From the IMG/VR virus record IMGVR_UViG_2908567220_000010: DNA of 12,050 nt, one strand, 5' to 3'. The first letter of the stretch is position 1. Each line of letters starts with the position of its first letter. The stretch is from a virus (lineage: Duplodnaviria > Heunggongvirae > Uroviricota > Caudoviricetes). The notes beneath the pieces are model-generated. The model made no database searches. It had not been told where the DNA came from and saw only the letters and a program-made list of their open reading frames with translations. This document shows positions 1 to 9,115 of the stretch, piece after piece. The position numbers and the translations under genes were made by a program.

Positions 1-137
1 CACAACATCCGAGGACAGCATCGTCCGCTGGCCCACAGAAGTCCGGAAAGTCATGGAAGGTCGTTGTTGGGAGGAGGTACAAATTCTCTCATGCAAAAAA
101 TACGTAAAATCGATAATAGCTGGAAATAATTCAATAC

Positions 138-198
138 ATGCACTCTCGAAAGTGCATCAGCCAACCGCAGAACGTTATTGCATACAACGTTTCTGCGG
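138..198 (+). other. Two adjacent inverted repeats (possible RNA stem-loops) in the apparently non-coding left end
   Basis: Seen in sequence: atgcact (138-144) pairs with agtgcat (151-157), 7 bp stem and 6 nt loop; ccgcagaacgtt (165-176) pairs with aacgtttctgcgg (186-198), about 12 bp with one bulge. Neither is followed by a T-run on either strand, so they are not classical intrinsic terminators. Confidence 0.3.
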
Positions 199-395
199 CA
201 TAATCCCAATGATTACTCCCTGACAGGGTTCGTAGGCCACTCAATATCAGGTGCAGTTGATGTATCAACACGGTTCAGCAACACCCGATACTTTTTCCAG
301 GCTTCCAGCAACAAGGTTTCTTCCTCCGTTGCGATTTCCAGCTCAACAACAGTCTGAACGTACCGGGAACAGCCTCCTTCAGAACTTGAAGGATA

Positions 396-3300
396 TCAAT
401 GTTCGCTTCCTGTTAACTGCCGGACAAGTGCAACCAGTTCGCTTACCTGATTTTCCAGAGTGCTGATCCGGGTGTCTGCTGTTGCCAGATTTTCACGTAG
501 CGTTGTGTTTTCCTCTTCCAGCGCGGTAACGCGATCATCTGTTTCACGGGCGACCTGAACAAGTAAACCCGTCACGGCGGCGTAGTCAACATTAAGATAG
601 CGCGTTTCTTCGCGTAGCTCGTTGCCGTCAACGGTCGGGCCTTGCAACTCTTCACCGTAATGGATGAATGAACCAACGGCCTCCGGGATGGCCTCTTCAA
701 CTTCCTGTGCTATAACCCCGGCGCAATGTGCCCCATTCTCCTTGAGCGTGTACGTGTATCCATTAATTTTGCGGATTGCGTCAGTCGCGTTATCGATAAT
801 CTCGATATTTTCTTTCAGTCTGCGGTCTGATGACTGATTCAGTGTGGTGCAGTTAACACTTCCGTTTACAGTAAGGTTTTGCCCGTCTGTTGTTTTTTGC
901 GCATAAAACAGATACGCGGCAGACGTGCCAACCTCAAAAACGTTTTGACGAGTACTGGAACCCCACACCCTGACAGAAAACGGTAGTTCTGCATTACCTG
1001 AGTTCTGTAAAACAAAACGATTACCAGTCCCTGATTGCTTTGTAAGGGTTAAATCAACGGTTGAGTTAACCTCATTCCTGTTGATAGTGAGCGCCTGCGC
1101 TATAGCCCCGTTAACAGCACCTGTTTTGAGTTGAACCGCGCCGTCATTACCATTTAACAGTATCTCAGCTCCGCTAAAGAAATTTTTTAGCGACAGCATC
1201 TTACTTACGCCGGCTGATGAACCCAACGCCCACGCGAGAGAATTACCGGTGCTATCAAACCCACGTACAAAGCAATCCATTTTGCTATAGTCTGACGTGC
1301 TTCCAAGGACATCAATCCGCCCTCCGCCAGATTTTACCGGACTAGATGTGGTTAACGACCTGACAGTTATATCCTGATTCCATCCGGAAACAACAACCTG
1401 ACTCCACGCTGTCCAGTTTCCATTAACAACAAAGCGAACGTATATACGTTTTGTGTCGTTGCTGATCAGCGTTTGCATGTTCGCATAATCCGAAGCAGAA
1501 ACTTTGCGAGTCGACTCTACACGGAGCAAAAAGTTACCGGTTACACCGTCAGGCTTGTTGGTGATATTTGCACCACCTCCAGAGGATGGACAACTATAGT
1601 ATTTAACCGCCCCGGCATCTGACCTGATGGTCAGGTTGTTAAGATCAACCTTCTGGCCGCCAATGTTTTCCGGCTCGATAGCTCCTGCTATCCCGGCACT
1701 GAACGTAGCAGCGGCTGAAAACGCTGTCGTACCTTTGAAAGCCAGTTGACCACCAATCGTTAATCCCTTGTCGAGTTTCGCTTGCGTGATCAATTTGCTG
1801 TTTTGTTTCTGATCAGGACTCTCACCAAAAGCCAGATCCCCATTAGTATCAATTCCAAGATACTTTGGGTTCACGTTGTCTAACTTAAACCCAATGGACA
1901 CATTTTCAGAAGAACCAGAACGCGTTAAAACCAACGGCGTGTGCTGTGCTCCATAGATGCTGAGCGTAGTTGCCGATGAGTCAGTGTCGGTATTTGCAAT
2001 CTCAATCGTTCTGCTTTTAATTTTATACGCTACTGTGAGATCACGGACTTCAACCCTCCCGTCGTGACGAACAACAAGATCCCCTCCTGATGTCCCCCCT
2101 GCTGTCTTTGCCCTGATGCGAACTTCGCCAAGCGAATCAGTGTTAGGACCAGCATAGATTATGCCGCGCTCTGTGTTATCGCCAGTATAAAACCGCACAG
2201 CGGTGACTCCACTGTCTGCCCGCAGGAAGACTGACGGTGTACCTTTTTTGATTGTCAAGTCACCGGTCATTGTATCGCCGGTTTTTTTTACCTGCGCATC
2301 GTTCGTTACGTTGCCAAGTCCAACATCCGATTTCGACGGCTTGTTTGCCGAGCCGTATAGCTCATTGACGCTAAAAGTCCCGTTGTTAAGCCGGGCATCG
2401 GTGCCGGCATAGATCTTAATCTTCGCGGTTGAGTAGTCGATATTGATCGCTGACCACGTATCGCCGCACCGCGAGAATATACCAGAACCGTGGCTATAAA
2501 TGGTCGCCGTGCTTCCGGGCGGCTTATCACCGCGCCAGAAATGACCACCTTTGTCACGCAGAGCTTTTAAGATCTCTACATCGCTCATCTTGCCGTTTGT
2601 TGATATCCCGCTACCGCCAAGACCGAAAGCGCCTGTAAGCATAGCATTAGAAAGACCCAAATCTGCTTTAGTCGGCTTGTTTACCTGGTCGTAAATCCTT
2701 ACAACGTTGCCTTCAATATATCCAGAAGGCGCGGCGGTTTGCTTAACAAATCCGTCTGGAATGTATAATTCTGTGTTTAGTGTTGTCTGCGCCAGCACCG
2801 CAACCTTTGCGTCGTTAATAAACGCACCCTGGAATGCCCAAACCTCAATAAAGCCGTCACCTTTAACCAGGCCGTAACGCATCTGGTTGTTATCGGTCAG
2901 CCCGGTTGACCCTAAGCGGCGTATACTCAGATGACGAGAAACATTATCCGCACTAAGCAAAGAAGGCAGACCGCGCGCCGAGATCTCGATAAAGTCAATG
3001 TTTCCGTAAGGGGAGCCGTAGTTACCAGCGTTAGTAACCATTAGCGTTACATGACTTCTGCTGGTTCCAGGATCGGAAAGTTTCGCGATCTTGATGTAAA
3101 GAGACTCACTAGCAGTAACAACAGGCCAATCGTATTGCGTCATCGGGCTGACGAGTCCCCCGACCTTGTCGAGATATTCTTTCGCCTTGTTCTCTGACGC
3201 TTTAGCGTTGGTTTCGCTGACCTTTGCTGCTGACTCACTATTTTTCGCGTTGGTTTCTGATTTTTTGGCTGCTGTCGCGGAATTTGCCGATGCAGTTTGT

Positions 3301-4172
3301 GAGTCTGCTGCCGCCTGTGCGCTGTTATCCGCATTCGTCTCAGACGTTTTTGCGGCCTTCGCGGAATTTCCTGCCGCCGTTGCCGAGGAAGCTGCACTGC
3401 CGGCGCTCGAGGCTGCGCTCGTTTCTGATGATTTTGCCGCCACTTTTGAAGCCGACGCATCCCGGGCTGAGGTGGCAGCTTCTGACGCTTTCGTGGTCGC
3501 GGTGGATGCAGAAGTGGCCGCAGATTTTTGTGATGCTGCGGCATTCGTTTCTGACGTTTTCGCTGCACCGGCACTGGTGGCTGCCGCGCTTTTTGAAGAC
3601 TCTGCAGCGGCAGCACTTTTTGATGCTTCAGTGGCCTTTGCTGATGCCGTTCCTGCGCTGGAAGACGCTGACTGAGCCGACGAAGCGGCCTGTCCGGCTG
3701 ACGTGCTGGCTGCACGTGCTGAGCCTGCAGCATCAGTCGCATGGGTTGCCGCCTCACGGGCTGATGTGCTGGCATCGCTGGCTGACTTCTTTGCGGCAGC
3801 CGTGTTCTGTGCCACTGCGGACGCGTTATGCGCCACCTCTTCCACCATCAGTTCAAAGCGGCGCAGTGCCTCCGGACGGACATCATCCTCCGTCATGGCA
3901 CCGAGAAAATCATTCAGCGTACCCGGTTGTGAGTCTTCATACACGGTGATGGTCCCGGCATGCGATGGCGGGAAGCCTTCCACCAACAGAATAACGCTGT
4001 ACTGACCGTACTCAACGTCCATGCTGTAACGCCCGGCTTCATCCGGATTTTCTGAGGCCACCGTGTTCGCCACCACCGTGGTGCTGTTACGTTTTGCTTT
4101 CAGCTGGATTGTGCAGTTCTGTACCGGTTTACCTGCACCGTCTTTCAGTACACCTGAAATCTTTACTGCCAT
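396..4172 (-). CDS. stf: Side tail fibre protein, chimeric: lambda Stf-like N-terminus, Ala/Ser/Thr-rich fibrous repeats, large distal domain, C-terminal intramolecular-chaperone (peptidase S74-like) domain
   Basis: Single 1260-codon ORF in the track. The track starts it at a GTG (4176-4178), but the ATG two codons in (4170-4172) gives MAVKISGVLKDG..., which matches the N-terminus of lambda Stf (orf-401) and Rac StfR as I recall them, so I place the start at 4172 (1258 aa). A GGGG motif lies 5 nt upstream. Residues about 118-333 are low-complexity A/S/T-rich with recurring KxSETNA units. GDTMTG (aa 634-639, nt 2262-2279) and KxDLGLxN motifs are typical of phage tail fibres. The C-terminal 144 aa start SDRRLKENIEIID...GVIAQEVEEAIPEAV, characteristic of auto-cleaving chaperone domains. 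Stop TGA at 396-398. Confidence 0.9.
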   Translation of the reverse strand: MAVKISGVLKDGAGKPVQNCTIQLKAKRNSTTVVANTVASENPDEAGRYSMDVEYGQYSVILLVEGFPPSHAGTITVYEDSQPGTLNDFLGAMTEDDVRPEALRRFELMVEEVAHNASAVAQNTAAAKKSASDASTSAREAATHATDAAGSARAASTSAGQAASSAQSASSSAGTASAKATEASKSAAAAESSKSAAATSAGAAKTSETNAAASQKSAATSASTATTKASEAATSARDASASKVAAKSSETSAASSAGSAASSATAAGNSAKAAKTSETNADNSAQAAADSQTASANSATAAKKSETNAKNSESAAKVSETNAKASENKAKEYLDKVGGLVSPMTQYDWPVVTASESLYIKIAKLSDPGTSRSHVTLMVTNAGNYGSPYGNIDFIEISARGLPSLLSADNVSRHLSIRRLGSTGLTDNNQMRYGLVKGDGFIEVWAFQGAFINDAKVAVLAQTTLNTELYIPDGFVKQTAAPSGYIEGNVVRIYDQVNKPTKADLGLSNAMLTGAFGLGGSGISTNGKMSDVEILKALRDKGGHFWRGDKPPGSTATIYSHGSGIFSRCGDTWSAINIDYSTAKIKIYAGTDARLNNGTFSVNELYGSANKPSKSDVGLGNVTNDAQVKKTGDTMTGDLTIKKGTPSVFLRADSGVTAVRFYTGDNTERGIIYAGPNTDSLGEVRIRAKTAGGTSGGDLVVRHDGRVEVRDLTVAYKIKSRTIEIANTDTDSSATTLSIYGAQHTPLVLTRSGSSENVSIGFKLDNVNPKYLGIDTNGDLAFGESPDQKQNSKLITQAKLDKGLTIGGQLAFKGTTAFSAAATFSAGIAGAIEPENIGGQKVDLNNLTIRSDAGAVKYYSCPSSGGGANITNKPDGVTGNFLLRVESTRKVSASDYANMQTLISNDTKRIYVRFVVNGNWTAWSQVVVSGWNQDITVRSLTTSSPVKSGGGRIDVLGSTSDYSKMDCFVRGFDSTGNSLAWALGSSAGVSKMLSLKNFFSGAEILLNGNDGAVQLKTGAVNGAIAQALTINRNEVNSTVDLTLTKQSGTGNRFVLQNSGNAELPFSVRVWGSSTRQNVFEVGTSAAYLFYAQKTTDGQNLTVNGSVNCTTLNQSSDRRLKENIEIIDNATDAIRKINGYTYTLKENGAHCAGVIAQEVEEAIPEAVGSFIHYGEELQGPTVDGNELREETRYLNVDYAAVTGLLVQVARETDDRVTALEEENTTLRENLATADTRISTLENQVSELVALVRQLTGSEH
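399..830 (-). other. Predicted C-terminal intramolecular chaperone / autoproteolytic domain of the side tail fibre (peptidase S74-like)
   Basis: Last 144 residues of stf (aa 1117-1260). The conserved Ser-Asp followed by RRLKENI, then a GxxAQEVEE acidic helix and a coiled-coil-like tail (ALEEENTTLRENLATADTRISTLENQVSELVALV), fits the family found at the C-terminus of endosialidase tailspikes and the T5 L-shaped tail fibre, where cleavage occurs at the conserved Ser. Domain assignment is from motif recognition only. Confidence 0.65.
3180..3827 (-). repeat. In-frame degenerate repeat tract inside stf encoding Ala/Ser/Thr-rich units
   Basis: Protein residues about 118-333 are almost only A/S/T/K/E/N with recurring AAKTSETNA, KKSETNAKNSE, VSETNAKASE units. 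At the DNA level there are imperfect copies such as gcattcgtctcagacgtttttgc (about 3333-3355) and gcattcgtttctgacgttttcgc (about 3542-3564). The repetitive codon structure also explains the long antisense and out-of-frame ORFs reported on the + strand here. Confidence 0.7.
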
Positions 4173-4184
4173 ATTCACCCCACA

Positions 4185-4210
4185 AAAAAGCCCGCCTGAA
4201 CCGGCGGGCT
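4185..4210 (-). terminator. Rho-independent terminator downstream of lom (minus-strand orientation)
   Basis: On the minus strand: AGCCCGCC-GTTCA-GGCGGGCT (perfect 8 bp GC-rich stem, 5 nt loop) followed directly by TTTTT then G. It lies 27 nt after the lom stop and just before the stf start. On the + strand the hairpin has no T-run, so it is unidirectional. Confidence 0.7.
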
Positions 4211-4236: not shown

Positions 4237-4836
4237 TCAGAACTTATAACCAACACCCACGATGAAACCGTCAGTGCGCCAGTCGCCACTGCCGGAGCCT
4301 TCATAAGCAATATCAATGGCCACGGATTCGGTCGGGTTAAACTGCACGCCAGCCCCCCACGCCAGAGACGTGTTGCTGTGGCGACCATCATCACTTCCGG
4401 TCAGCACTTCGTGCGTTTTCCCCTTGTTGTCAGTTACGCGGAGATAATCCCCGGAGAAAGTAGAAATACGGCTGTAAGCCACACCCGCCATCGCATACGC
4501 GCTGAACCATTCATTCACGCGCACAGACGGCCCCGCCATCACGCTGAACCAGCGGTTACGCACGGAATCCTCATGCCAGCGGGTATCGCTGTAATGCGTT
4601 TTTTGCTCATCTTCAGCGTTGGCATAACTGAATGACGTAATCAGCCCCAGCGTGTCCGTAAACTCATAACGGTATTTCACGTTAATCCCGTTCAGATTAT
4701 CGCTGCCGGGAGCGTTCGTACGGGCATGAAGATACCCCGCGCTCAGTGTGGACTGATGTTCAGACGCCCATGCAGGCGCACCGGATACGGCCAGACAGAT
4801 GGCTGCGGACAAAATGGCTGCACAAACTTTACGCAT
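4237..4836 (-). CDS. lom: Lom, outer-membrane beta-barrel protein of the Ail/Lom/PagC family (lysogenic-conversion moron)
   Basis: 199-aa ORF. N-terminal signal peptide MRKVCAAILSAAICLAVSGAPAWA with an AxA cleavage motif, C-terminal ...GVGYKF ending in Phe as in outer-membrane beta-barrels, and alternating hydrophobic/aromatic strands. It sits between J and stf exactly as lom does in lambda. SD GAGAGG lies 5 nt upstream of the ATG (plus-strand 4842-4847). Confidence 0.93.
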   Translation of the reverse strand: MRKVCAAILSAAICLAVSGAPAWASEHQSTLSAGYLHARTNAPGSDNLNGINVKYRYEFTDTLGLITSFSYANAEDEQKTHYSDTRWHEDSVRNRWFSVMAGPSVRVNEWFSAYAMAGVAYSRISTFSGDYLRVTDNKGKTHEVLTGSDDGRHSNTSLAWGAGVQFNPTESVAIDIAYEGSGSGDWRTDGFIVGVGYKF

Positions 4837-4860: not shown

Positions 4861-4884
4861 AAAAAAGGCGCCAGAAATGGCGCC
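4861..4884 (-). terminator. Rho-independent terminator between J and lom (minus-strand orientation)
   Basis: On the minus strand: GGCGCCA-TTTC-TGGCGCC (7 bp stem, 4 nt loop) followed by TTTTTT, about 20 nt after the J stop codon. Confidence 0.65.
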
Positions 4885-4904
4885 CGCATATGGGTTATGA
4901 AAAT

Positions 4905-7900
4905 TCAGCTAATCGTGATACCTGCTGTGGATTTCTTCATCACCACAACCAGCAAATCACTGATACTGGCTGTGGGATACCAGTCATTTACCAGCCACGC
5001 TGATACCGAAAACTCCAGCGTCATGTGACCGCGACCGGCAGGCATATCAATAACACCTGTATAAACCAGCGTATTATCCAGCGCGGTACGGTTATAAATT
5101 TCAGCACCGTTTTTCTTCACTATCAGGCGGCATGACGAATAAATATCGTTATTCTCCCGCTCATGTTTAGCGCCACGAAACGCCACCGCGGGAATAACAA
5201 TCTGCCGGTCAAACGGCTGATCGTCATAAACCCTGACGGTAATGGTCCCTGATGGCCACCGCTCCGGTGCACGGGAGTCCCGGGGGAAAGCTTTGCCCAC
5301 TGTTTTAACGAGATCGCCTTCAATCTGGTTCGCAGACAGTTTTCCCAGAACCCGACAGTTTTCATTAATCGTGACGTTGTTGAGCGTCCCGGCGTTCGCA
5401 TTCACGTTACCGCTGATATCCGCATTTTTAGCAGTCAGCTTTCCGTCCGGTGTCAGGGAAAATGCCGGTGGATTTCCACCGCTGGTAATGGTGGGGGCCG
5501 TCAGGCGTTTCAGGAACACTTCGTTCATGAATATCTGATCGCCCTGCCCAACAAACATCGGCTTTGTGTTGCCATTCGCAGGATTAATCATCGCAATCCT
5601 GTCTGCCGCCAGCAGCACCTGACTCTGCATGCCGTCAGGGGTGTTCTCAATACCGGCACCAATACCCGCGATATAAAGGCGTCCGTCCTGCATCTGCTGC
5701 AGCTTCACAGCCCACATGCTGTTCAGGTTATTATTTGTATCAACCTGAACCTTCTGTATCTGCTGAATTGCCGCACTCTGGTCTTCCAGTTTCTTATTGA
5801 CGGTCTGTGTGATTTCATTGCTGACATCCGTAATGGATGTCCTGATTTCAGCCAGGTCAGGCGCAAGCTGACCGTTATCAATCTGCGTCCACAGCTCCTG
5901 AGCCAGATGGGTTTTCCCTATCTCGCCTTTGAAAAAATCCAGATAGCCGGATGCGTCATCACTCGGCTGACCAACAGCCTCCACGAATGCCGATTTGCCA
6001 ACGGTGTTCACACTGCGAACGTAAAAATAATAATTATGGCCCGGCCTGATATTGATACTGGCGGCTATCCAGTACAACGCCGTACCAAGATAGCGTGCTG
6101 TGGTTTCAACCTGCCTGATATCCGCAATCCGCTTTTCCGAGAACCAGAACTCAAACTGTACCGTCGGATCATAAACCGCAAGATGCGGCGTGGCGGTTAT
6201 CTGAAAATAGCCCGGCGTCAGCTCAATCCGAGACGGCGCTGCCGGTGCGGCAATCCGGAACGATACCGATGCCGGATCGCCCTGCTGTCCCCACGCATTT
6301 ACCGCCCGGACTGTCAGCCTGTAATTCCCCAGCGCCAGTTGCGTGAAGCGGTATGTGGTTTCCGTCGTCCGGGCCGTGCTGACCAGCCGCTCACTGCCGT
6401 CATCCGCTGCCACGGTCAGGCGAAGCAGGAAGCTCACGCCCTTCACCACCTTCGGCGTGTCCCAGCGGGCCAGCACCTGGTATTCCCCGCTGTCTGCGGT
6501 GACTTCTGCGGTCAGGTGCTGCACTGCTGGCGGCGTGACACCATTCACCGTGCCGCTCTGGTCGCCGTCAAAGTGCGCCCCGTTATCCACGATGGCCTCT
6601 TTTTCCGGTACATGCTGCACGGCGGTGATGGCATACGTGCCGTCATCGTTCTCACGGATACTCACGCAGCGGAACAGGCGCTGGCGCAGCGTCGGCAGCT
6701 TCAGCCCCCACACGCTGTACTCGGCAACGCCGTCAGGAACCCGGCTCACTTTCACCTTCACGCCGTCGGTGACGGACTGGACCTCCACGCTGACCGGATT
6801 GCCACTTCCGTCAACCAGGCTTATCAGCGTGGTGCCGGAGGATGGCAGCGTGATTTCACGGTCGAGCGTCAGCGTCCGGGTCTGGCTGTTCACCGCCAGC
6901 ACGCGCCCGCCGGTGCTGATACCGGCATAGTCATCATCGCAGATTTCAATGACATCGCCCGGTACATGGCGAAGCCCTTCTGCGCCGACGCTGAAATCCA
7001 CGGTCTGCGTCTCCAGCAGTTCTGTTTTAATCAGCCACAGCCCGGCGCGGTGCGCCTGCCCCCGACTGGTACAGCCAAACGCATCCATCTTCGTGACGTT
7101 ACGACCGTAACGGGCAATGGCCTGCGAGTCCTCCACAAGCTCTGTTGCCGTCTCCCAGCCGTTATCCGGGTCAATCCAGTTCACTTCAACGGCATTATGG
7201 CGGTCTTTCAGGGCGCTGAAGCTGTAGCGGAATGGTGCGCCATCATCCGGCATCACCACATTACTGCGGTTATAGGTCCACACCTTATCTGATGGTCGGT
7301 CCTGCACGAACGTCAGCGTCTGCCCGTTCCATACCGGCATACAGCGCATCGCCGAGCAGAAATCACTGAGCACATCCCACGCCTTGCGCTGTGTGGTCAG
7401 GTACGCATTACAGGTGATGCGCGGCTCCGTGCCGCCAAAGCCGTCCGGCACCGACTGGTCGCAGTACTGGCCGATGACATACAGCGCCCATTTATCCACA
7501 TCCGCCGCACCAAGACGTTTCCCCATGCCGTAGCGCGGATGGGTCAGCATATCCCACAGACACCAGGCCATGTTGTTGCTGTATGCCGGTTTAAACGTTC
7601 CGTCCCAGATACCGCTGTATTGCCGCGTCTGCGGGTTATAGTTCGACGGCACCTGCAGAATACGCCCGCGCAGATGATAATTACGGCTCACCTGCTGGCT
7701 GCCGAACTGCTCCGAGTCCACCTGCACGCCGACCAGTGCCGTGTTCGGGTAGCACTGTTTCACATCGATAATTTCGGTGTATGACGACCAGAGCGTTTTG
7801 TTCTGCAGCTGGTCTGTGGTGCTGTCCGGCGTCATCCTGCGCATCCGGATACTGAACGGGCGCGGCGGCAGGTTATCCACCACCACCGAGGCCAGATACT

Positions 7901-8384
7901 GTGAAGTGGTTTTACCCTTAATGGTGATGTCTTTTTCCGTCACCCAGCCACCATTACGCTGTATCTGAACCAGCAGGCGAACTTCCGACGGATTCCTGTC
8001 CCCCTTTGAGGTGGTTTCCACCAGTGCCTGCACGCCGAAAGTAAAACGCAGACGGTCAATGTTTGCCGACGTGATGGTCCGGGTGATCGGCGTGTCATAT
8101 TTCACTTCTGTACCGAGCACCGTCTCGGAGCCGGAGGATTCAAACCCCTCCGGCGGTGTCTGCTCCTGCTCACCGGCCCGGAACACCACCGTGACGCCGG
8201 AGATATTGGTATTCCCCTCACTGTCCAGCACTGGCGTACTGTTCAGCAGCACGCTTTTTAATCCATCCACCGGACCTTCAACCGGCCCTTCGCTGATGGC
8301 ATCGATCACACTCAGCAACTGCGTGGACTTCAGGTTGTCCTTCGCTTCGCGCGGAGTATGCCCCTTACTGCTGCCTTTACCCAT
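4905..8384 (-). CDS. J: Tail tip / central tail fibre host-specificity protein J
   Basis: 1159-aa ORF beginning [34 protein letters not shown]..., which I recognise as the N-terminus of lambda gpJ. Fibronectin-III-like central region (e.g. [30 protein letters not shown]). GGAG lies 8 nt upstream of the ATG. Lambda J is 1132 aa, so this protein is 27 residues longer. Confidence 0.95.
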
Positions 8385-8443: not shown

Positions 8444-9115
8444 TCAGCGACCAATCACCACAACCTGACCACCATCCCCTTCGTCTGCCGTGCTGATCTC
8501 CTGAGAAACCACGCGTGACCCCACGCGCATTTCCCCGTACAGAACAGGCAGAACATTGCCCTGGGCAACCATGTTATCCAGTGAGGAGAAATAGGTGTTC
8601 TGCTTACCGTTATCCGTTGTCTGTGTACGGGGAGTTCTGGCTTTCGGTGCCAGCATCTGCGCCACACCACCGAGCACCATACTGGCACCGAGAGAAAACA
8701 GGATGCCGGTCATACCACCGGCCCCAATGGCTGCCCCCCATGCTGCAAGGGTGGCTCCGGCGGTAAAGAATGATCCGGCAATGGCGGCAGCCCCCAGGAC
8801 AATCTGGAATACGCCACCTGACTTGGCCCCGGCGACTCTGGGAACAATATGAATCACAGCGCCATCAGGCAGAGTCTCATGTAACTGCGCCGTTAACCCG
8901 GACGTGCTGACGTCCCGCCCGGCAATCCGTACCTGATACCAGCCGTCGCTCAGTTTCTGACGAAACGCCGGGAGCTGTGTGGCCAGTGCCCGGATGGCTT
9001 CAGCCCCCGTTTTCACACGAAGGTCGATGCGGCGACCAAATCGTTGTAAATCCCCGTAAAGGCAGATGCGCGCCATGCCCGGTGACGCCAGAGGGAGTGT
9101 GTGCGTCGCTGCCAT
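8444..9115 (-). CDS. I: Tail tip assembly protein I
   Basis: 223-aa ORF, MAATHTLPLASPGMARICLYGDLQRFGRRIDL..., matching lambda gpI in sequence and length (223 aa). Gly/Ala-rich hydrophobic segment in the C-terminal half. Its start lies inside the 3' end of K in another frame, as in lambda. Confidence 0.93.
   Translation of the reverse strand: MAATHTLPLASPGMARICLYGDLQRFGRRIDLRVKTGAEAIRALATQLPAFRQKLSDGWYQVRIAGRDVSTSGLTAQLHETLPDGAVIHIVPRVAGAKSGGVFQIVLGAAAIAGSFFTAGATLAAWGAAIGAGGMTGILFSLGASMVLGGVAQMLAPKARTPRTQTTDNGKQNTYFSSLDNMVAQGNVLPVLYGEMRVGSRVVSQEISTADEGDGGQVVVIGR

Follow-up and report, generated by a model that had tools for sequence, protein, structure and literature searches.

The lambda-family protein J of an Escherichia coli prophage as a probable three-module mosaic with its extra length in the shaft

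The tip attachment protein J encoded in the window (the whole stretch analysed here, 12,050 nt of the Caudoviricetes record IMGVR_UViG_2908567220_000010) is longer than its lambda counterpart, at 1159 aa versus 1132 aa (NC_001416), raising the question of whether the additional residues signal a different receptor-binding end. A preliminary description of the locus had proposed exactly this, placing the extra residues and any switch of receptor together in the C-terminal region, at roughly nt 4908-5650. As one joint reading, we consider it rather probable that the window encodes an intact lambda-family J protein within an E. coli prophage tail module of the order H-M-L-K-I-J-lom-stf, that this protein is a three-module mosaic with its extra length in the shaft, and that its receptor-binding domain (RBD) most likely binds OmpC. 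The gene would then be a recombinational mosaic of a lambda-like body, a phage-21-type shaft, and an RBD of the type found in 1A2, VT1-Sakai and 640R1 (Table 1).

Gene J and its place in the tail module

According to the list of open reading frames and the translation, J is a single uninterrupted reading frame, so that the 27-codon excess over lambda stands, and the C-terminal peptides quoted in the preliminary description are present in the protein. Six Pfam J domains, all scoring above their curated cut-offs, follow one another in the same order as in lambda gpJ (NP_040600.1 / P03749; PDB 8iyk, 8xcj, 8xck), and a phmmer comparison with PDB 8iyk chain J returned E = 0. An identical full-length J protein is carried by CP024978.1. 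As judged from the map of open reading frames and the Pfam content of the neighbouring genes, J follows M-L-K-I and precedes lom and stf, matching the lambda annotation; the reading frame sizes agree with those of lambda I (223 aa), L (232 aa) and M (109 aa), lom sits in the same position as lambda lom, and stf carries phage_tail_N (aa 3-136) and Peptidase_S74 (aa 1117-1168) domains. A promoter and terminator scan of the window yielded no more sites than shuffled sequence did; candidate terminator hairpins were noted after J and after lom only, by analogy with phage 21, which has a terminator annotated at the matching place after J.

Table 1 Features of gene J, its product and the neighbouring genes in the window (nt, window coordinates; aa, residues of window J)
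Feature	nt	aa	Strand	Remarks
Gene J, tip attachment / central tail fibre protein	4905..8384	1-1159	minus	stop codon 4905-4907
Module 1, hub domains and two FNIII/Ig domains	5955..8384	1-810	minus	lambda-like
Module 2, alpha-helical shaft and upper straight fibre	5505..5954	811-960	minus	phage-21/Ayreon/640R1 type
Insertion 1 versus lambda, 21 residues	5817..5879	836-856	minus	MAFFT and global alignments
Insertion 2 versus lambda, 7 residues (QTVNKKL)	5787..5807	860-866	minus	alignment
Conserved junction	5355..5504	961-1010	minus	likely recombination joint of shaft and RBD modules
Module 3, Ig-like RBD	4908..5354	1011-1159	minus	1A2/VT1-Sakai/640R1 allele
FNIII-A_GpJ		86-207		Pfam
Phage-tail_3		330-498		Pfam
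Ig_J		610-714		Pfam
Ig_J_second		716-818		Pfam
Phage_Tail_Tip		872-1000		Pfam
Ig_GpJ_C		1029-1159		Pfam, E = 9.6e-39
Gene I, tail assembly protein, upstream of J	8444..9115		minus	Pfam Lambda_tail_I
K, L, M, then end of H	upstream of gene I			gene calls
lom, Ail/Lom outer-membrane protein, downstream of J	4237..4836		minus	Pfam Ail_Lom, E = 1e-127
stf, side tail fibre, 1260-aa reading frame	396..4178		minus	probable ATG start 4172; S74 intramolecular chaperone domain at end
Terminator-like hairpin with T-run, directly 3' of J	4866..4885		minus	consensus scan, by itself no proof of function

Per-window identity to the J proteins of lambda, 21, 434, phi80, HK97 and N15 delineated a lambda-like body followed by a diverged shaft and RBD. 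Module 1 has a GC content of 57-64% and, in 90-nt bins, is 88-100% identical at the nucleotide level to lambda, 21, 434, Ayreon and 640R1. In 50-residue bins its amino-acid identity to lambda is 94-100% up to aa 750 and 88% at aa 751-800, in keeping with the earlier impression of a lambda-like N-terminus and body. The J proteins of N15, phi80 and HK97 share 12-56% identity per 50-residue bin with window J over its first 1000 residues, and over the last ~160 residues they gave no usable alignment (0-24% identity, mostly gaps for N15 and phi80).

The extra residues lie in the shaft

At the first module joint the GC content falls from ~60% to ~50%. Beyond it, module 2 is 94-100% identical at the nucleotide level to phage 21, Ayreon and 640R1, versus just 28-79% to lambda and 434. 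The match to phage 21 J (UMO75436.1) amounts to 94-97% nucleotide identity over aa 811-960, and to 98% amino-acid identity with an identical gap pattern over aa 801-950. In comparison with lambda gpJ, from which the sequence has diverged over aa 811-950, the shaft is longer by two insertions that together make up 28 residues, or four heptads, and lie ~150 residues upstream of the RBD; the phmmer alignment to the lambda J structure (PDB 8iyk) left aa 836-865 of the query unaligned. A single one-residue deletion in the last 150 residues completes the balance (+28 and -1, net 27). The additional residues are thus located at nt 5787-5879 (aa 836-866), and not in the C-terminal stretch to which they had been assigned.

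In lambda, Ge & Wang 2024 (PMC11101478) assigned residues 841-861 to the alpha-helical shaft, and the insertion sits just ahead of them. Proline and glycine are absent from aa 843 to ~900, and a low-confidence single-sequence AF2 model of aa 790-1159 (mean pLDDT 38.5), from which we used secondary structure alone, has a helix at aa 842-900; the stretch that holds the 28 residues is therefore weakly predicted to be helical.

The same long shaft, with 28 residues more than in lambda and 434, occurs with three different RBD types, examples being phage 21, whose native receptor is LamB, and Ayreon, which has a 434-like RBD; long-shaft J proteins measure 1160 aa in phage 21, 1165 aa in Ayreon, 1159 aa in 640R1 and 1158 aa in BP-4795. 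Conversely, the RBD type of window J is found on the short lambda shaft in phage 2G7b (J of 3396 nt) and in the engineered 1A2 chimera. Shaft form therefore assorts independently of RBD type, and because all 28 extra residues fall in the shaft module, the 27-codon excess reflects shaft length and not receptor choice. A literature search for phages 2G7b and 1H12 found no paper describing them.

These observations bear directly on the explanation that the 27 extra residues belong to the C-terminal ~250 residues and by themselves bring about a receptor switch. Its appeal lies in the general rule that host-range variation in J is C-terminal, yet the placement is refuted by the alignments: both insertions precede the last 250 residues, and the RBD, far from having gained length, is one residue shorter than that of lambda. 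Since the same RBD type also works on a short shaft in 1A2, and the long shaft pairs with other RBDs, we give this explanation next to no weight.

Shaft and RBD are separated by a stretch that is conserved across the family and corresponds to the region around lambda aa 932-980. Over aa 951-1000, window J is 88-96% identical to lambda, 21, 434, Ayreon, 640R1 and VT1-Sakai, and 74% identical to BP-4795; the junction at aa 961-1010 is likely the recombination joint between the two modules.

A distinct allele of the receptor-binding domain

Over aa 996-1159, identity is 95.7% to 640R1, 93.3% to VT1-Sakai, 66.3% to phage 21, 46.3% to lambda and 42.5% to 434, and every variable loop differs from its counterpart in the LamB-binding RBD at lambda aa 985-1132. 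The preliminary description had set its proposal against a C-terminal end essentially identical to that of lambda with the extra residues elsewhere; the residues did prove to lie elsewhere, but the end shares less than half of its residues with lambda.

The closest relatives over the entire gene, J of vB_EcoS-640R1 (URC10086.1, 1159 aa) and of PhiR55_1 / PhiR46_1, share the three-module combination and the length, at 94-96% nucleotide identity; the SNIPE paper, which used PhiR phages, gives no outer-membrane receptor for them. J of the VT1-Sakai (Sp15) prophage of E. coli O157:H7 shares the RBD allele free of indels, but is frameshifted and has a body just 56-93% identical to the window at the DNA level over nt 1-2160. 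The same allele, again free of indels, is carried on the short lambda shaft by the gpJ-1A2 chimera (Brodel et al. 2024, Nature 632:877). The gpJ-1A2 sequence was taken from the supplement of that paper (PMC11338833), where it is machine-read with bases dropped; plain tblastn split it across frames, and we therefore used a frameshift-tolerant aligner, checked on the A8 chimera against the clean PDB sequence 9wca. In this alignment 149 of the 162 readable positions match the window (at least 92%), and VT1-Sakai matches at 158 of 162 (97.5%). At the DNA level 1A2 is only ~70% identical to the window and appears recoded.

The J specificity region described by Maddamsetti et al. 2018 has its indel hotspots at lambda positions 1012, 1048-1049, 1077-1078 and 1107, and the indels among the alleles aligned here fall at those four sites. 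Phage 21 J differs from the window by indels at two hotspot loops (-4 and +5 residues). With RBD identity of at least 90% and all four hotspot loops free of gaps, window J belongs to the 1A2/VT1-Sakai-type allele. Within aa 960-1159 it differs from 640R1 at nine positions and from VT1-Sakai at 13, the substitutions clustering in the variable loop 1070-1079, plus position 1134. At this last position, where the hotspot residue is not shared, the window has D and 1A2, VT1-Sakai and 640R1 all have N; the lambda residue aligned with D1134 is D1107, which is critical for the gain of OmpF use (Maddamsetti et al. 2018). D1134 marks a sub-allele without excluding the window from the allele.

Both modules are common. 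Among complete E. coli genomes, ~3,390 records carry sequence with at least 95% identity to nt 5595-5954, and 3,560 of 5,426 genomes (~two thirds) match this stretch over no less than 80% of its length. The RBD DNA allele occurs in ~3,330 such records at identity of at least 90%, and the window sub-allele in 162 at identity of at least 99%. The best 120 matches in a protein search with aa 800-1159 all came from E. coli and Shigella sonnei and were fragments with 95-100% identity. This exact combination of shaft and RBD is thus confirmed as widespread.

The probable receptor and what the mosaic means

The receptor assignment draws on the engineered particles of Brodel et al. 2024 (PMC11338833). 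Delivery by 1A2 particles into K-12 carrying EDL933 OmpC reached 95.6% at MOI 26 and 98.3% at MOI 233, compared with ~5% in wild-type MG1655, which has LamB and K-12 OmpC, and ~2% when K-12 OmpC was supplied to a lamB ompC double mutant; lambda-WT particles, by comparison, delivered to 97.7% of MG1655 cells in that assay. In the text of the supplement, the Extended Data Fig. 2c values for 1A2 and A8 repeat those of panel b. An STEC preprint gives the same OmpC receptor assignment for 1A2, which is the only member of this RBD allele with receptor data that we found. Because the chimera joins this RBD allele to a lambda body, the porin used by window J is most likely OmpC of a non-K-12 (O157-like) type rather than LamB. 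The suggestion of a different receptor-binding end thereby gains support, in a distinct Ig_GpJ_C allele formed by the last ~150 residues, though its coupling to the gain in length does not hold. The OmpC-binding J proteins of phage 434 and phi330/WGPS6 and the A8 chimera (PDB 9wca) have the same family and fold as the window RBD, and the RBD scaffold is therefore able to dock to OmpC; they differ from the window in that the 434-type RBD is ~42% identical with larger loop insertions, and A8, on the phage-21/BP-4795 branch, is ~62% identical. Phi330, from a paper on EHEC phages, was set aside as a receptor model; its nearest relative is WGPS6, whose RBD, of the 434 type, is another allele. A 2026 receptor-prediction preprint was likewise set aside as a source, as it covers GpJ for Drexlerviridae and related phages only and leaves lambda GpJ out of its alignment.

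RBD identity of 92-96% is no guarantee of a shared receptor, since the RBDs of A8, which uses OmpC, and of the LamB-using phage 21 are 82% identical, and one substitution switches phage 21 from LamB to OmpC. Continued LamB binding as in lambda and phage 21, with the divergence due to drift or antigenic variation, would be compatible with the shared Pfam RBD family, with loops that match lambda in length at all but one of the four indel hotspots, with the 66% identity to the phage 21 RBD and with the aspartate that the window shares with lambda at position 1134. We nevertheless regard it as quite improbable in view of the poor delivery of 1A2 particles into LamB-expressing MG1655, the dependence of that delivery on EDL933-type OmpC, and an RBD less than half identical to that of lambda. 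Somewhat less remote, if still unlikely, is a receptor range shifted from that of 1A2 by the sub-allele (R1070, R1076, N1078, N1079, R1118 and D1134, among others), which might then accept OmpC variants other than those used by 1A2, perhaps that of K-12 among them, or use another porin, for example OmpF. Such sensitivity has precedents in the single-residue switching of phage 21 and in the different OmpC variants accepted by 1A2 and A8 (PMC11338833); the substitutions are concentrated in loop 1070-1079 and at the lambda-1107 homologue, and the sub-allele is itself common. The absence of indels versus 1A2 or VT1-Sakai, equal lengths at all four hotspot loops and the high overall identity weigh against it, and nothing points directly to another receptor.

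On the preferred reading of an OmpC-binding mosaic, J would act much as in lambda, with which it presumably shares the trimeric tip and trigger mechanism; 94-100% identity to lambda J over the first 750 residues suggests a trimer that closes the tail tip, projects the central fibre and opens upon receptor binding. Docking onto the trimeric outer-membrane porin would fall to the distal RBD loops, and the binding signal would then travel along the straight fibre as far as the helical shaft, whose unfolding may free the FNIII domains and open the tube. It is conceivable, if doubtful, that the four-heptad extension, which window J has in common with phage 21 and with the majority of J genes in E. 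coli prophages, is a functional trigger variant and not neutral, and separately that the D1134 sub-allele recognises other OmpC variants than 1A2 does. If so, the extension could alter reach through O-antigen or capsule, or the unfolding threshold at which the tail opens.

Modular exchange of the J specificity region has already been published, and the finding is real but ordinary; annotated E. coli genomes with this J architecture number in the thousands, it carries little weight as a discovery, and an RBD of this allele has already been exploited in engineered lambda particles. What it offers is a correction, in that J proteins of the lambda family that differ in length are not thereby to be taken to differ in receptor, because the length polymorphism lies in the shaft and specificity in a highly diverged Ig-like domain of equal length. 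For this prophage it also yields a prediction, namely that the tail tip probably targets non-K-12 OmpC, with consequences for host range and the choice of indicator strains.

The J gene in its tail module

An ORF map and Pfam matches identified the window as the distal half of a lambda-type tail module, carried on the minus strand in the order H end, M, L, K, I, J, lom and stf (see table). J contains six Pfam families specific to the tip attachment protein J, all in lambda order, and in RefSeq genomes a gene of the same length carries the gpJ annotation. An identical J protein occurs in one record only, the 4.9-Mb chromosome CP024978.1, where the prophage tail end adjoins a metal ABC transporter operon, a usp gene and a porin gene; this arrangement points to an insertion site close to Rac/ompN on that chromosome. 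The operon (L011, our extract of CP024978.1, 12053-17148) comprises four genes (ZnuA, ABC_tran and two ABC-3 genes) and resembles sitABCD.

Positions of J, its neighbours and the segments compared
Feature	Position	Strand	Description
stf	window 396-4178	-	tail module; long
lom	window 4237-4836	-	tail module neighbour of J
J	window 4905-8384	-	uninterrupted ORF, 1159 aa
Ig_GpJ_C	J aa 1029-1159		Pfam; C-terminal receptor-binding domain, last of the six J families
Global alignment to lambda J	J aa 1-750		94-100% identity per 50-residue bin
	J aa 751-800		88% identity
	J aa 801-950		28-60% identity; 28 gap positions in lambda
	J aa 951-1000		94% identity
	J aa 1001-1159		33-54% identity; one gap in the window
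DNA modules	J nt 1-2430		closest: lambda, 21, 434, Ayreon, 640R1, 88-100% to each per 90-nt bin
	J nt 2431-2880		closest: 21, Ayreon, 640R1, 94-100%; lambda and 434, 28-79%
	J nt 2881-2970		conserved joint; 94% to lambda
	J nt ~3060 to end		closest: 640R1, VT1-Sakai, 88-99%; all others ~34-88%

GC-rich hairpins followed by T-runs lie directly after J (4866-4885, -) and after lom (4189-4210, -), bracketing lom as a separate unit, as is also annotated in phage 21; a scan of the window for terminator-like hairpins returned overall no more sites than in shuffled sequence. The side tail fibre gene stf is one continuous 1260-aa frame (L011 7817-11657). Its N-terminal domain is lambda-like, aa ~120-340 form a repeat region rich in Ala and Ser, and the C-terminal part holds a Peptidase_S74 intramolecular chaperone domain (aa 1117-1168); downstream there is no separate gene for tail fibre assembly. 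The CP024978.1 annotation gives stf just 915 aa and puts two small genes on the opposite strand within its repeat region, probably an annotation artefact.

Position of the extra residues

The preliminary description had noted that J is 27 residues longer than lambda J, and this difference is real (1159 versus 1132 aa, NC_001416). In a multiple alignment, lambda has a gap of 21 residues opposite window J aa 836-856 and another of 7 opposite aa 860-866; independently of that alignment, phmmer matched the solved lambda J to query residues 1-835 and 866-1159, leaving 836-865 unmatched. Together, these results place the extra residues at nt 5787-5879, outside both the last 250 residues and nt 4908-5650, where they had been expected; neither that location nor the reading of the length gain as a sign of receptor change holds.

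The inserted sequence, 28 residues in total or four heptads, lies past the end of Pfam Ig_J_second (aa 818) and ahead of Phage_Tail_Tip, which begins at aa 872; it directly precedes the stretch matching lambda residues 841-861, assigned to the shaft helices that refold upon LamB binding (Ge & Wang 2024, PMC11101478). Window J from aa 843 to ~900 is without Pro or Gly, and hydrophobic residues recur every 3-4 positions past a short NGQLAP break. An AF2 single-sequence model had low overall confidence (mean pLDDT 38.5), the helix at aa 842-900 being its sole moderately confident element. We infer that the shaft may be lengthened by up to ~4 nm. This long shaft is not peculiar to the window: it is present in J of phage 21 (1160 aa), Ayreon (1165 aa), 640R1 (1159 aa) and BP-4795 (1158 aa), and among 5,426 complete E. 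coli genomes, 3,560 match 80% or more of the shaft-module DNA (nt 5595-5954), in almost every case at 95% identity or higher.

Receptor-binding end and predicted receptor

A divergent receptor-binding domain (RBD) had also been proposed, correctly; more precisely, it is the 1A2/VT1-Sakai allele, whose target is probably OmpC. Over window J aa 996-1159, identity is 95.7% to vB_EcoS-640R1, 93.9% to Stx2a phages and 2G7b, 93.3% to VT1-Sakai, 66.3% to phage 21, 46.3% to lambda and 42.5% to 434. J proteins of HK97, N15 and phi80 are just 12-56% identical in 50-residue bins across the first 1000 residues, and could not be usefully aligned over their last ~160 residues (0-24% identity, with N15 and phi80 mostly gapped). 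Indels among the alignable RBD alleles fall into four hotspots (lambda 1012, 1048-1049, 1077-1078 and 1107) described by Maddamsetti et al. 2018, who found residues 960-1132 to behave as an independent evolutionary module across 1,207 natural homologues. The allele is widespread: 3,350 of 5,426 complete E. coli genomes have a match covering at least 80% of the window RBD DNA, which is at least 90% identical in ~3,330 records of such genomes. In VT1-Sakai, the O157:H7 Sakai Stx1 prophage (AP000400.1; our extract L005, 1523-4995), J with this allele is split into two ORFs by a frameshift and is probably non-functional; the window copy is intact.

Brodel et al. (Nature 2024, PMC11338833) built chimeras in which lambda gpJ is joined at aa 964 to the C-terminus of a natural gpJ, and characterised two of them, A8 and 1A2. 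Their supplementary DNA was machine-read with bases dropped, and was aligned by a frameshift-tolerant method; the A8 reconstruction was confirmed by the clean sequence in PDB 9wca. Of 162 readable positions in the 1A2 C-terminus, 149 agree with the window RBD (at least 92%) and 158 with VT1-Sakai (97.5%); identity is 65% to phage 21 and 45% to lambda. A8 belongs to the phage-21/BP-4795 type, with 82% identity to phage 21. In that study, 1A2 delivered to ~5% of wild-type MG1655 at MOI 50 (lambda-WT particles, 97.7% at MOI 174), to ~2% of a lamB ompC double mutant with K-12 OmpC, and to 95.6-98.3% of K-12 with EDL933 OmpC; for 21 of 23 OmpC variants, at least one of A8 and 1A2 delivered efficiently. 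A later STEC preprint repeats that gpJ-1A2 recognises EDL933 OmpC, not LamB. Because of this RBD match and the delivery behaviour of 1A2, the receptor of window J is probably OmpC of a non-K-12 type. In the supplementary source data of PMC11338833 (Extended Data Fig. 2), the 1A2 and A8 values of panel C (OmpC-EDL933) duplicate those of panel B (OmpC-MG1655), contradicting the main text and Fig. 1b; this has the look of a copying mistake, either in the file or in its extraction.

Over aa 960-1159, window J has 9 differences from 640R1 and 13 from VT1-Sakai, four of the latter in variable loop 1070-1079. D1134 (nt 4983-4985, -), which is N in 1A2, VT1-Sakai and 640R1, aligns with lambda D1107, one of two residues universally required for lambda to gain OmpF use (as D1107K; Maddamsetti et al. 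2018). D1134 marks a distinct, common sub-allele: 162 records of complete E. coli genomes match the window RBD DNA at 99% identity or more. A single J mutation lets phage 21 gain OmpC use, and A8 uses OmpC whereas phage 21, which of the natural phages compared is the one closest to it, uses LamB. Given these 9-13 substitutions, D1134 included, and both precedents, the receptor class is likely rather than certain, and window J may accept a different range of OmpC variants from 1A2.

Mosaic structure of J

At the DNA level, in 90-nt bins, J consists of three modules and one conserved joint. Shaft and RBD types reassort freely: the long shaft accompanies a 21-type RBD in phage 21, a 434-like RBD in Ayreon and the window RBD type in the window, 640R1, PhiR55_1 and PhiR46_1; the short shaft accompanies the window type in 2G7b (J of 3396 nt) and their own RBDs in lambda and 434. 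GC drops from ~60% to ~50% across the first joint of J. Along the window it is 57-64% in the tail genes and J body, ~50% in the C-terminal third of J (4905-6000) and 45-50% in distal stf (750-3000), steps consistent with separately acquired host-range modules. Window J is a well-described, already known variation of the lambda-family J proteins.
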